Part shown: positions 930 through 4,469 of the stretch, one piece after another
How the letters are laid out: each line of letters begins with the position of its first letter
Position numbering within the stretch: the first letter of the stretch is position 1
From: a virus
Virus genome (UHGV): UHGV-1847494
DNA: 21,641 nt
Direction: 5' to 3' (one strand)
Translations under genes and position numbers: made by a program
The notes under the pieces: model-generated
The model's input: the letters and a program-made list of their open reading frames with translations, nothing else
The model's database searches: none
Told to the model about the DNA's origin: nothing

Positions 930-1854
930 TGATTTTTGCGCCTTTATTCTGACTCACGGGCGACCGGACAAAGTTCTGACTTACCGGACGTTGCGTCGTG
1001 CTGGCTATACCGGGAAAATTTTTATCGTTGTTGATGATGAAGATAAGACACGGAATCAGTACATGGCTGAATTTGGTGAACAGGTGCTGGTGTTTTCCAA
1101 AGCCGATATCGCCAGTCGTTTTGACGAAGCCGATAATTTCTGTGACCGCCGCTCAATTTTTTACGCCCGTAATGCCTGTTTCGACCTGGCAAAACTGGTC
1201 GGGTGTAAATACTTCATTCAGCTCGATGATGATTATCACGAGTTCCAGTTTCGGGTGGATCGCAACTATGACCAGGCCTATTTTCCGATAAGGAAACTGG
1301 ATGCGATCCTTTCTGAAATGCTGGCGTACTACGAATCAATACCTGCTCTTTCCATCGCTATGTCGCAGGGCGGGGATTTTCTTGGTGACAATGGCGGCCA
1401 TGCTTCGTGGGTGAAACGCAAGGCAATGAACAGCTTTATCTGTTCGGTTGATCGACCGTTCTCATTCATGGGGCGCATTAACGAGGATGTGAATACGTAC
1501 ACGAATCTCGGTCGCTGTGGTGAATTGTTTATGACGATCGGTGCTGTCCAGTTAGGGCAGAAACAGACGCAGAAAAACAGCGGCGGAATGACCGAGCTGT
1601 ATCTGGATTCCGGAACCTACGTTAAAAGTTTTTACTCCGTCATGTATGCGCCGTCGTGCGTAAAAATCTCACTGATGGGTGCCAGCCATAAACGCATTCA
1701 CCATCAGGTCACCTGGAACAACGCTGCAGTAAAAATCCTTCACGAAAAATACAGGAAGAAGACACCCTGCATATCAATGGGGGTGACAAATGATTCCGTA
1801 TTCGAAAGTCGAGTCTCTGGCAGCGTGCCGGATGACTGCACAACAAATCGCTGA
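922..1854 (+). CDS. Hypothetical protein, translationally coupled to the ParB-like gene; possible GT-A-like nucleotide-sugar transferase fold (speculative)
   Basis: Strong SD GGAGGAGGA at 911-919 precedes ATG 922, so I prefer 922 over the track start at 901. The start overlaps the ParB stop (927-929) by 8 nt. Contains acidic motifs IFIVVDDEDK and YFIQLDDDYHEF that resemble a DxD motif. The fold assignment is inference only. Confidence 0.55.
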   Translation: MRDDFCAFILTHGRPDKVLTYRTLRRAGYTGKIFIVVDDEDKTRNQYMAEFGEQVLVFSKADIASRFDEADNFCDRRSIFYARNACFDLAKLVGCKYFIQLDDDYHEFQFRVDRNYDQAYFPIRKLDAILSEMLAYYESIPALSIAMSQGGDFLGDNGGHASWVKRKAMNSFICSVDRPFSFMGRINEDVNTYTNLGRCGELFMTIGAVQLGQKQTQKNSGGMTELYLDSGTYVKSFYSVMYAPSCVKISLMGASHKRIHHQVTWNNAAVKILHEKYRKKTPCISMGVTNDSVFESRVSGSVPDDCTTNR

Positions 1855-2041
1855 CGTTCTGGATGTTGATCTGAACCGACTGAAAGAAAATCGGGAAGCA
1901 ATGACAGATTTTTATGCGGCCATCCGTAAGGGCAGAGCGAAAGGTGAAGCCGAGTTACGAGCGGCATTGTTTAAGCTTGCCAGAAAAGGGGATGCCTTTG
2001 CTCTGCGCGAACTACTCAGGGTGGATAAAAATCAGGACTAA
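1790..2041 (+). CDS. Small putative HTH DNA-binding protein (83 aa)
   Basis: ORF preceded by GGGGGTGA 5 nt upstream of ATG 1790; overlaps the previous gene end by 65 nt. Basic helical sequence (IADVLDVDLNRLKEN ... KGRAKGEAELR) looks like an HTH. In the same frame as terS, separated only by TAA 2039-2041 plus 3 nt. Confidence 0.4.
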   Translation: MIPYSKVESLAACRMTAQQIADVLDVDLNRLKENREAMTDFYAAIRKGRAKGEAELRAALFKLARKGDAFALRELLRVDKNQD

Positions 2042-2044
2042 CTG

Positions 2045-3139
2045 ATGAGCAGACCGGACTGGGGGGCGTTGCAGCAGGAGTATATTGCTGAATACACCCG
2101 CTCCGGTATATCTCCGGTGGCATGGTGTGAAGCAAGGGGACTGAATTACGCAACAGCCCGTCGTTACATCAAAAAAACTCCGAAAAATGCGCAGACAGAA
2201 ATGTGCAAAACTGCGCAAAAAAGTGCGCAGAAAAAATCTGCGCAGACTGCACAAAAGCGGAACGAAAAATCTCAGGAAAAAAAGCCAGTATTCGATGCGG
2301 GCCTGAATGAGGGCGACGCGGAGGAATTTTCGTTCTGTCCCGATGAATTCGGCATTTCTGACCAGCAGGCTAAGTTTGCGATGCTTGTTGCTCAGGGTAA
2401 AAAGCCGACAGAGGCGTACCGACTAGCCGGTTATGAGGGGCAAGGTGCGACAGCTAACAGCAACGCCAGTCGTATGCTTAGAAATGCCAGGGTTTTTCGC
2501 GCTATCAGCTACTTCCGCAATCAGTACCAGAAACGCTATACCGCAGACCTGGATTTACTAGTGAGTCAGTTGATGGCTATTGTCCTGGCCGACCCCAATC
2601 AGCTTGCACAATTTCGCCGTGTTAACTGCCGTTATTGCTGGGGCGAGAATCATCTCTACCAGTGGCGCGATATAGCAGAATTCGACAAGGCAGCGGCGCA
2701 GGCTTCCAGAGATGGCAAACCCGAACCGGAATATGGAGGCCTCGGCTTTGTTGATAACGCCATACCCAATCCGGACTGCCCGAAGTGCTGCGGTGAGGGA
2801 ACGGGACAGCTTTATATGGCTGATACCACTCTGCTTGATGGGGATGCGCGGCAATTATATGCAGGGGCAAAATTCGGAAAATTCGGCGTTGAGATCCTGC
2901 TGGAGGATAAGGCTGCCGCCCGGCGTGAATTGTTGCGTTTGCTTTCTGCTGGCGGGGATTTATGTGCAGATAAGCGGCTACAGGAACTGGAAATTGAACG
3001 GCGCAGAATGGAAAACCAGAAGCTGCGCAAAGAGATCGAAACGGTGGAAGATAATGAACATCCCCAGCCTGTGGCGATCAATATTAATGTGGTTGATGCC
3101 AGAGTAAGGAGTGATGAAGATGATCTCTCCGACGCTTAA
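2045..3139 (+). CDS. Terminase small subunit (Terminase_2-like core), unusually long with Cys4 zinc-ribbon-like motif and C-terminal coiled coil
   Basis: 364-aa ORF directly upstream of the terminase large subunit. Central segment QQAKFAMLVAQGKKPTEAYRLAGYEG...NASRMLRNARV resembles the HTH core of small terminases. CRYC ... CPKCC motifs lie at about nt 2626-2800. The basic C-terminus is rich in R/E/L (LQELEIERRRMENQKLRKEIE). Confidence 0.7.
   Translation: MSRPDWGALQQEYIAEYTRSGISPVAWCEARGLNYATARRYIKKTPKNAQTEMCKTAQKSAQKKSAQTAQKRNEKSQEKKPVFDAGLNEGDAEEFSFCPDEFGISDQQAKFAMLVAQGKKPTEAYRLAGYEGQGATANSNASRMLRNARVFRAISYFRNQYQKRYTADLDLLVSQLMAIVLADPNQLAQFRRVNCRYCWGENHLYQWRDIAEFDKAAAQASRDGKPEPEYGGLGFVDNAIPNPDCPKCCGEGTGQLYMADTTLLDGDARQLYAGAKFGKFGVEILLEDKAAARRELLRLLSAGGDLCADKRLQELEIERRRMENQKLRKEIETVEDNEHPQPVAININVVDARVRSDEDDLSDA
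2185..2256. repeat. Periodic TGYGCA / A-tract repeat inside terS (candidate pac site or terminase binding array)
   Basis: TGCGCA at 2188, 2212, 2224 and 2239; TGTGCA at 2202; TGCACA at 2248. Spacing is 9-15 bp (about one helical turn), interleaved with A4-6 tracts. Encodes the low-complexity AQ/K-rich linker of TerS. Confidence 0.4.
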
Positions 3140-3164
3140 TGTGCCTCAGGCGCGATTTCTTTCA

Positions 3165-4469
3165 ATGCCCCATAAATTTAAAGCAGATCGGAAGAGCGTC
3201 GTGTAGGGAAAGAGTGTAGATAAATTTAAAGCCTATATTGCTGGTTTTGGCTCGGGCAAAACATGGGTTGGGTGTGGCGGCATATGCAAGGGGATTTGGG
3301 AGCATCCAGGTATAAATCAGGGATATTTTGCGCCAACGTATCCCCAAATTCGCGATATTTTTTACCCTACAGTGGAAGAAGTTGCTGCTGACTGGGGATT
3401 GAACGTAAAAATTAATGAGGGAAATAAAGAGGTTCACTTTTATTACGGACGCCAGTATCGGGGAACCACTATCTGCAGATCGATGGAGAAGCCACAAACG
3501 ATCGTCGGTTTCAAAATTGGTAATGCGTTGGTGGATGAACTGGACATTTTGCCGAAGGAAAAAGCCAGAACGGCGTGGCGCAAGATAATTGCGCGTATGC
3601 GTTATAAGATTGATGGACTTCGCAACGGTATTGACGTTACAACCACGCCGGAAGGATTCAAATTTGTCTACGAGCAGTTTGTTAAAGCCGTGCGTGAAAA
3701 AACAGAGCTGGCCTCACTGTATGGTCTGGTGCAGGCATCTACTTTCGATAATGAAAAGAACCTGCCAGCAGATTACATTCCTTCGCTTCTTGAATCATAC
3801 CCTCCAGAGCTGATTAAAGCCTATCTGCGAGGACAGTTTACTAACCTGACAAGTGGTACTGTTTACCATCAGTTTGACCGGAAACTGAATAATTGCGAAG
3901 AAGTGGAGCAGCCAGGGGAGCCGATTTATATTGGGATGGATTTTAACGTTGGAAAGATGGCGGGAATCGTCCATGTGCTGCGTTTGGGGCTTCCATGTGC
4001 GGTAACTGAAATCATCAATGCCTACGATACGCCGGATATGATCCGCATCATTAAAGAACGCTTCTGGCTGTATGATGGGAATGATTACCGGAAAGTGAGG
4101 GAAATTTATATTTATCCAGATGCTTCCGGGGATTCCAGAAAATCAAGTAACGCAAGTACGACGGATATAGCCCAGCTTAAGCAGGCTGGTTTTAACGTTG
4201 TGGTGAACAGCTCGAACCCGCCAGTAAAAGATCGCGTTAACTCAATGAATGCAATGTTCTGCAATGCCAATGGTGAGCGTCGCTATAAAGTTAATGTGAA
4301 GCGTTGCCCGTTATATGCCGAATCTCTGGAGCAACAGGTCTGGGATGAGAAGGGGGAGCCTGATAAAAAATCTGGCAATGATCACCCGAATGATGCCGGA
4401 GGTTATTTCATCGTTAAGCAATTCCCTATTGTCAAACCGACCGGAAGAGTCACATCACTTCGGATTTAA
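3165..4469 (+). CDS. Terminase large subunit (ATPase/nuclease); 5' end interrupted in this assembly by the adapter-derived insertion carrying an in-frame TAG at 3204-3206
   Basis: Walker A motif KFKAYIAGFGSGKTW is encoded at 3222-3266, upstream of the track start at GTG 3372 and in the same frame. No ATG/GTG/TTG lies between the TAG and the Walker A. Removing one repeat copy plus the adapter (48 nt) restores ATG 3165 with N-terminus MPHKFKAYIAGFGSGKTW. The uninterrupted frame as given is 3207..4469. Confidence 0.8.
3185..3221. other. Illumina TruSeq universal adapter sequence (reverse complement), an assembly or library artifact
   Basis: agatcggaagagcgtcgtgtagggaaagagtgtagat is an exact 37-nt match to the reverse complement of the TruSeq universal adapter 3' end. 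It is flanked by a duplicated genomic 13-mer ATAAATTTAAAGC (3172-3184 and 3220-3232). The antisense translation gives the adapter-signature peptide LSLHDALPI (track ORF 3162..3497, minus strand). Confidence 0.93.

Follow-up and report, generated by a model that had tools for sequence, protein, structure and literature searches.

The virus genome UHGV-1847494, a stretch of 21,641 nucleotides that is referred to as the window in the following, contains at positions 2045-3139 an open reading frame (ORF), terS, whose 364-aa product belongs to the Terminase_2/phrog_51 small terminases (TerS). The protein matches Pfam family PF03592 (Terminase_2) over residues 122-321 with 35.1 bits against a cut-off of 26.1 (E 2.4e-8) and the family phrog_51, 'terminase small subunit', over its full length (E 2e-76). 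Within terS, directly behind the part encoding an N-terminal helix-turn-helix (HTH), lies a cluster of TGCGCA-like hexamers (Table 1), which a preliminary description of this DNA had proposed as the packaging (pac) site of a headful-type phage. This proposal received strong comparative support from the linkage of the array to the HTH, from the co-variation between recognition helix and hexamer and from the homology to PacA of phage P1. We consider it probable that the array is the recognition part of the phage pac site and is bound by the N-terminal HTH of the TerS that the same gene encodes.

The sequence between 2180 and 2260 reads ccgAAAAA-TGCGCA-gacagaaa-TGTGCA-aaac-TGCGCA-aaaaag-TGCGCA-gaaaaaatc-TGCGCA-gac-TGCACA-aaag and thus comprises four exact copies of TGCGCA (2188-2193, 2212-2217, 2224-2229 and 2239-2244) and two one-off variants, TGTGCA at 2202-2207 and TGCACA at 2248-2253. 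All six hexamers are located where the preliminary description had placed them, with start-to-start intervals of 14, 10, 12, 15 and 9 bp, i.e., within the range of 9-15 bp it had given. The motif TGYGCA, under which they had been summarized, fits five of the copies but not TGCACA at 2248, and the A4-6 tracts said to separate them occur in most of the A-rich spacers but not in those at 2194-2201 and 2245-2247. In contrast, the claim that the array is helically phased did not hold, and the bent DNA that phased A-tracts were said to imply was not supported. The resultant length R of the six positions was 0.09 at 10.5 bp versus 0.81 at 12 bp, and relative to the whole window the A-tracts had ordinary periodic power at 10.5 bp (54th percentile) but extreme power at 12 bp (99.9th). 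Curvature as estimated by a wedge model was unexceptional (16th percentile), and spacing within the family varies between 7 and 16 bp. The array accordingly has a period of about 12 bp and is not helically phased; Tandem Repeats Finder (TRF) reported periods of 12 and 36 bp.

The window harbours 11 TGCGCA hexamers in total, four of which fall into the array, and the next one beyond it is found at 3024; there is a single cluster. In 2000 first-order Markov simulations of the window, none produced at least four TGCGCA in 57 bp and none at least six TGYRCA in 67 bp. The array DNA encodes NAQTEMCKTAQKSAQKKSAQTAQK, which is part of the linker peptide of TerS. When codons were resampled with the peptide fixed and with the window's own codon usage, at least four TGCGCA arose in 14 of 100,000 cases (P = 1.4e-4) and at least six TGYRCA with P = 4e-5, indicating that codon choice itself is biased towards the hexamer. 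The hexamer cluster is therefore real and non-random, far beyond what is expected by chance. On the minus strand, the palindromic hexamer pairs between 2224 and 2255 score, together with adjacent T-runs, as hairpins resembling intrinsic terminators.

TerS departs from the usual Terminase_2 layout, in which the DNA-binding HTH is the most N-terminal domain, as an extra HTH (residues 1-44) and a linker of about 50 residues precede it. Three helices are predicted for the N-terminal domain (residues 6-20, 24-30 and 35-42), the last of which contains the putative recognition helix A-T-A-R-R-Y-I-K. The AlphaFold2 (AF2) model of this domain reached a predicted local distance difference test (pLDDT) score of 71-86 over residues 1-40, and the segment was also confident in the full-length model. 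Foldseek searches with the domain model returned exclusively HTH DNA binders as top matches, though with E>0.1, which points to an HTH-like fold only; nothing significant was found for the domain in Pfam and PDB, where HTH_23, HTH_29 and HTH_Tnp_1 remained below threshold. Residues 45-93 of the linker had a pLDDT below 50 in both AF2 models. The Terminase_2 DNA-binding domain itself appears as a second confident HTH at about residues 100-160, and the TerS core, which is related to the TerS of F116, Bcep22 and PEp14, contains an inserted putative zinc ribbon (CxxC...CxxCC; C195, C198, C245, C248, C249) whose cysteines are invariant in the alignment (A5). The full-length AF2 model is of low confidence (pLDDT 49) and was used for domain boundaries only. 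Among E. coli genomes, two mosaic breakpoints were observed in this gene: some records match only up to about 2929, with the C-terminal tail of TerS and TerL being swapped together, and others match only from about 2197, with the N-terminal domain being swapped.

The hexamer is conserved at the DNA level. Homologues that were identified by protein similarity (53-99% identity) in Escherichia ruysiae, Shigella, Superficieibacter, Serratia and Buttiauxella each carry four to five exact TGCGCA at the same place in the linker. Across 25 non-redundant lineages (nucleotide identity <=80%), TGCGCA was the top 6-mer of the linker with 141 copies in 24 of the 25 lineages, embedded in A-rich flanks (AAA-C-TGCGCA-R-A-A) and spaced by 7, 9, 12, 14 or 16 bp. 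It occurred in all three reading frames, 101 times as xxT GCG CAx, 30 times as xTG CGC Axx and 12 times as TGC GCA, yielding the peptides A-Q, [MLV]-R and C-A, respectively, e.g., in AGT GCG CAA (S-A-Q), ATG CGC AAT (M-R-N), CTG CGC ACA (L-R-T) and TGC GCA (C-A). This strongly indicates a constraint on the DNA and not on the peptide, and together with the biased codon choice it bears out the earlier claim that the region is constrained more at the DNA than at the protein level. The preliminary description had suggested looking for homologues that keep the protein but lose the repeat; the reverse was seen, in that the peptide changes and the hexamer stays. As the sites lie within linker-coding DNA, the x-A-Q-K peptide repeat would largely be a by-product of this constraint. 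Both degenerate copies of the window (2202 and 2248) are TGCGCA in close relatives, e.g., in L085, and the majority of relatives have TGCGCA (ATG CGC AAA) at the position of 2202; in the best E. coli versions, all six copies are perfect. Slippage adds and removes units, single hexamers decay, and copy number differs by whole repeats between E. coli variants (e.g., L078, L079 and L080).

The array is also tied to the N-terminal domain. IMG/VR viral contigs were scanned in reverse for the pattern TGCGCA-N3-10-TGCGCA-N3-10-TGCGCA, and among the matches listed 58 of 80 were located inside TerS homologues at about residues 46-86 of the ORF, whereas the remaining loci among them were mostly microsatellites or scattered intergenic sites. 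A search with the N-terminal domain later added one more carrier (L153). In several carriers, similarity to the window TerS is limited to the first 75-100 residues, and PHROG scans placed the combination of N-terminal domain and array on three otherwise different TerS families, phrog_51, phrog_370 and phrog_1711. No hexamer cluster was found in homologues of the TerS core that lack the N-terminal domain. The array is likewise independent of the neighbouring genes, since other carriers have lysis genes upstream instead of the ParB_N and glycosyltransferase genes of the window. Two natural variants depart from the common arrangement. In one phage locus (L207), the linker of a TerS with the same A-R-R-Y helix is devoid of hexamers, and six TGCGCA occur on the minus strand (3657-3713) in a 70-bp non-coding spacer, 1.9 kb upstream of terS (start 5621) and just before a holin-like gene and lysis cassette. 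In Rac-SA53 (L222, KU052037; 1351-2379), where terS is annotated as a two-gene fusion by deletion, the N-terminal HTH is lost; similarity to the window starts inside the array (about 2197), and with two intact TGCGCA left the array is decaying. The genes directly upstream of terS in Rac-SA53 encode heat-labile enterotoxin IIa.

Two follow-up protein searches yielded mostly short fragments, which served as rows of the multiple sequence alignment, and two divergent PacA loci. More than 120 database clusters (P0121-P0240) represent fragments of 44-89 aa that consist of the N-terminal domain only and end out of frame in the linker, which is rich in A-runs. Errors in homopolymer sequencing may account for them, or else real slippage at A7-A9 runs, the latter of which would yield a free HTH. 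A further variation was observed in TerS of Erwinia/Izhakiella (L007, about 690-770; L008, about 3130-3210), where a different N-terminal HTH is followed by four to five GGGGCA/TGCCCC and A-runs in the equivalent linker. On the basis of these two near-identical sequences, another HTH family may follow an equivalent design. In L097, an HTH similar to that of L007/L008 is followed by a TGCGCA array.

Protein and DNA are further linked through the recognition helix. Considering only loci ascertained by protein similarity, 32 unique sequences with the helix core A-R-R-Y had a mean of 4.9 TGCGCA (range 3-7) and no TGCGAA, while 72 unique sequences with A-K-R-Y had a mean of 5.5 TGCGAA/TTCGCA (range 4-9) and of 0.3 TGCGCA; due to the relatedness of the sequences, these counts do not represent independent events. 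The core of the third helix predicted the repeated hexamer without exception among these loci, and an unbiased k-mer count gave the same top motifs, TGCGCA for A-R-R-Y and TGCGAA for A-K-R-Y. The closest R-type and K-type N-terminal domains are identical at 37 of 44 positions and differ at 7. Thus, a change of one residue in the recognition helix tracks a change of one base in the hexamer, and direct read-out would be expected to switch a whole array together with one helix residue in this way.

The K-type arrays belong to a sister family (L215, L216, L217, L221 and L227-L306) in which the TGCGAA/TTCGCA hexamers are located in the linker (about nt 126-300 of terS), often as TGCGAATTCGCA; carriers include Klebsiella RothC/D, Yersinia vB_YenM phages (vB_YenM_29.18), Providencia PSTCR3 and Pasteurella Pmp11. 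A third variant is found in the Shiga toxin (Stx) phages EH2086 (Stx2a; L220, about 1640-1690) and 933W (NC_000924, about 28.9 kb), where a homologous HTH with the helix N-T-A-R-T-R-I-K (core A-R-T-R) is followed by four YGATCA hexamers encoding IDHEIDHKTDHEIDHD. These hexamers contain GATC and are of the P1 type, which suggests that Stx phages carry a putative Dam-sensitive, P1-like pac site. The N-terminal domain, the position of the array and the architecture of these sister arrays are as in the window, while the helix residue (K39, or the T-R variant), the hexamer and the TerS core (phrog_370) differ.

By profile comparison, the N-terminal domain is a remote homologue of the N-terminus of P1 PacA (..FNLNPNTARRYLR..), with about 22% identity over 41 columns. 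In hhalign, the two aligned with a probability of 83% when a single sequence was used and of 96.6% (E 6e-10) when the profile of the domain (A1) was compared to that of the PacA family over these 41 columns. Residues 6-80 of the window TerS matched the PacA family phrog_1711 (E 3.8e-5; PacA itself, 4e-202), and reciprocally PacA matched phrog_370 (E 1.9e-4). A default hmmsearch against the P1 ORFs found nothing. In P1, hexamers of the type TGATCA are located at nt 194-233 and 324-380 directly past the homologous domain, and the P1 record annotates the pac cleavage sites as well as an IHF site inside pacA. That these hexamers function in binding and cleavage by pacase is established and summarized in PMC10028697, which cites Sternberg & Coulby 1987 and Skorupski et al. 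1992, 1994. Both systems hence combine a homologous N-terminal HTH with repeats of a palindromic TG-NN-CA hexamer in the small-terminase gene right after the HTH-coding part, and in both families the repeats tolerate different frames and peptides in divergent members, as the divergent PacA genes also keep the hexamers in other peptide contexts.

The two systems differ in several respects. The window hexamer is TGCGCA instead of TGATCA/G and lacks GATC, as read straight from the sequence, which implies that, unlike in P1, there is no control by Dam methylation. The window has one cluster of six hexamers, whereas those of P1 are arranged as 4+3 (HEX4/HEX3) flanking the cut, and the IHF site of the central cleavage region in P1 has no counterpart, as no match to the IHF consensus WATCARNNNNTTR was found within 2000-2600. 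The TerS core is of the Terminase_2/phrog_51 type versus the PacA core, no similarity was found between the window TerL (Terminase_6) and PacB, and a lambdoid Rac-like siphovirus prophage stands against a plasmid-prophage myovirus. The homology to PacA and the hexamers following the HTH suggest that the window carries a recognition module of the P1 type, with a new hexamer, grafted onto a Terminase_2 TerS, from which we infer its function in packaging.

With respect to mechanism, TerS, whose Terminase_2 core is of the ring-forming type, would present several copies of the HTH on flexible basic linkers of about 50 residues. Multivalent binding to closely spaced hexamers (7-16 bp; about 12 bp in the window) could provide specificity for phage DNA, be it a concatemer or an unexcised prophage. 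TerL would then be positioned for the first cut nearby, with headful packaging to follow. The 12-bp spacing and the A-rich spacers may favour wrapping of the DNA.

Several points weigh against this reading. Single hexamers are dispensable: natural variants have lost or mutated some of them, and the window itself has two degenerate copies. Moreover, L095-L214, a part of the lineage set, were collected through the hexamer pattern itself. In hmmsearch with --max, PacA was the top match but a weak one (E 0.032), so that the homology rests on hhalign and the PHROG profiles. The P1 architecture is matched only in part, given the one cluster, the missing IHF consensus and GATC and a TerL that is unrelated to PacB. 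In addition, P1 PacA shares the helix T-A-R-R-Y yet uses TGATCA, indicating that residue 39 is not the sole determinant of specificity and that other residues contribute. An adapter-marked junction at 3172-3232, 930 bp downstream of the array, could hint at a physical end elsewhere but is not interpretable. The actual binding, the initiation of packaging at the array, the position and direction of the cut and the oligomeric state of TerS are inferred.

Among the alternatives, the hexamers might be operators by which the TerS HTH, or a free N-terminal domain, regulates the late/packaging operon at the level of transcription or translation, with no role in selecting the DNA to be packaged. The co-variation of HTH and hexamer proves recognition and not purpose, the relocated array of L207 is intergenic and positioned just upstream of the holin-like gene and the lysis cassette, and many database ORFs encode fragments with the N-terminal domain only. 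However, the domain invariably forms the N-terminal part of a small terminase, across three families, and the hexamers of the P1 homologue are the experimentally defined pac site. Moreover, the array of the window is located inside an ORF, and a promoter scan of the window found no promoter-like site overlapping it. We therefore regard a purely regulatory function as unlikely.

Packaging could also start from a cos-type or other fixed end elsewhere, e.g., near the adapter junction, in which case the array would be at most an accessory site resembling cosB. An Illumina TruSeq universal-adapter read-through (AGATCGGAAGAGCGTCGTGTAGGGAAAGAGTGT) lies at 3185-3217 in the 5' portion of terL, between the two copies of a 13-bp direct duplication, ATAAATTTAAAGC (3172-3184 and 3220-3232), and such adapter remnants are found at the record ends of other phage genomes (H15, H17, H19). 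The insertion occurs in none of the 906 E. coli and 10 phage records with the region and had no IMG/VR matches, and a truncated adapter joined straight to the genome is typical of chimeric reads or assembly artefacts, which is most likely what the junction represents. It falls into the codons just before the Walker A motif of TerL, and once the 48 nt are deleted, TerL has 433 aa and is identical to that of ON470595. The relatives of this TerL in Jerseyvirus and Kagunavirus (43-51% identity; Jerseyvirus 43%) belong to phages that are reported to package by headful (PMC10783031). Further, terminase and head module are not lambda-like: terS is followed by terL, a DUF4055 portal, a Mu-F-like protein and a P22-type coat; the subsequent tail is lambda-like. 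Taken together, a fixed end appears rather improbable.

Even less probable is that the palindromic hexamers act via structure, as hairpins in the terS mRNA or as an antisense intrinsic terminator, or that they are targets of restriction or modification. The terminator-like hairpins with T-runs on the minus strand (2244-2224 and 2255-2237) and the inverted repeats I2-I4 are in line with the former, while TGCGCA is a palindrome of the type II kind and the genes at 138-1854 encode a ParB_N protein and a TET-associated glycosyltransferase (TAGT). However, neither spacing nor pairing partners are conserved, the TGCGAA of the sister arrays is non-palindromic and mostly in direct orientation, no Rfam match was obtained, and arrays also occur in phages without ParB/TAGT next to terS. 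That the repeat is merely the footprint of an S/T-A-Q-K peptide repeat made by slippage, with selection, if any, on the linker, is effectively excluded, as the TRF periods of 12 and 36 bp and the copy-number variation by whole units are outweighed by the hexamer being kept in three frames, the codon bias (P about 1e-4), the intergenic array of L207 and the hexamer switching together with the recognition helix in linkers that remain basic.

Returning to the array as a pac recognition element, the preliminary description had drawn on P22, SPP1 and Sf6 as precedents; the fitting one is phage P1 with its hexamer repeats bound by PacA. The G1P proteins of SPP1/SF6 resemble the window TerS in having a Terminase_2 core with its own HTH DNA-binding domain, the pac region (pacL-pacC-pacR; PMC4737164) likewise overlaps the 5' part of terS and is rich in A/T-runs, and recognition is in both cases thought to use many HTHs on a ring. 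In SPP1/SF6, however, the DNA-binding domain binds only weakly and shows no sequence specificity, and binding is not driven by the box repeats (PMC4737164), whereas the window has an extra N-terminal HTH and a sharply defined motif that co-varies with the protein. P22 and Sf6/ES18 share with the proposed pac site of the window the location of the packaging signal in the terS ORF of a headful phage, to which synonymous 'wobble' mutagenesis is applicable (PMC11260489). Unlike the array, the P22 pac is a single asymmetric 22-bp site in the middle of gene 3, and the TerS folds are unrelated; the pac sequences of Sf6 and ES18 are still undefined. The R-sites of lambda cosB resemble the array as repeated sites near the gene start for an N-terminal HTH of TerS (the winged HTH of gpNu1) that anchor the terminase, but lambda has a cos instead of a pac site, its R elements are 16 bp long and located outside the coding sequence, the lambda system is IHF-dependent, and the HTH is of another family.

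More tentatively, the HTH and its hexamers could constitute a portable 'pac cassette', i.e., a PacA-like HTH with its own hexamer array in the linker DNA. It would be found on at least three unrelated TerS cores (P1 PacA; Rac-like Terminase_2; 933W/Stx together with Klebsiella/Yersinia), with a code of Arg39-TGCGCA, Lys39-TGCGAA and 933W/P1-YGATCA. If so, pac specificity would be sequence-specific, predictable from sequence and re-programmable, in contrast to P22, Sf6, SF6 and SPP1, whose TerS according to reviews binds pac in vitro only weakly and independently of sequence (PMC9611059, PMC4737164). Very few phages have a known pac site, with that of ES18 still unknown (PMC11260489), and reviews regard sequence-specific pac recognition as unresolved. 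In the open-access literature, we found no description of TGCGCA arrays associated with a terminase or of the P1 hexamer architecture being generalized to other terminase families. The TGCGCA/TGCGAA TerS family offers a sharply defined motif, a small separable HTH and a natural specificity switch, R or K at one helix position versus C or A at one base, which makes recognition directly testable. The region belongs to a prophage type carried by 906 of 5,426 complete E. coli genomes (about 17%); one carrier with an identical region is E. coli 266917_2 (NZ_CP026723, H20). For this type, the array would predict the start of packaging and, as a consequence, where lateral transduction begins and which way it runs; by extension, this would also apply to 933W-like Stx phages and Klebsiella prophages. 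It would further give a sequence rule for the annotation of pac sites and for the design of packageable phagemids.

Table 1. Features at the terS locus of the window (coordinates in nt of UHGV-1847494)
Feature	Position	Strand	Remarks
83-aa ORF, possible accessory DNA-binding protein, membership uncertain	1790..2041	+	phrog_309, E 8e-23
N-terminal PacA-like helix-turn-helix, terS codons 1-44	2045..2176	+	AF2, hhalign, phrog_1711
Basic low-complexity linker, predicted disordered, terS codons 45-98	2177..2338	+	x-A-Q-K repeats
Hexamer array, proposed pac recognition element	2188..2253	.	four TGCGCA and two degenerate copies, A-rich spacers
terS core: second HTH, oligomerization helices, putative zinc ribbon, C-terminal TerL-matching tail	2339..3139	+	
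terL (Terminase_6N/6C), nuclease/ATPase partner	3120..4469	+	Pfam; interrupted by 48-nt artefact 3185-3232

Upstream of terS, the 83-aa ORF ends 3 nt before the start of the gene. Its similarity to phrog_309, which is another TerS family, is confined to the centre of the profile (positions 145-218 of 319). The E. coli group as well as L004, L005 and L124 have this ORF, whereas most other array carriers lack it. Further upstream, a gene at 138-929 encodes a ParB_N-domain protein with additional similarity to the N-terminal part of phage DNA methyltransferases (phrog_498). It overlaps with a gene at 901-1854 for a TET-associated/GREB1-like glycosyltransferase (PF20691; phrog_842, 'beta-glucosyl-HMC-alpha-glucosyltransferase'). 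The two genes may form a DNA-modification module; no TET/JBP gene was found in the window. Minus-strand ORFs at 18.4-21 kb, which had been considered as an oddity, were rejected as such, being accounted for by gpJ running off the window.

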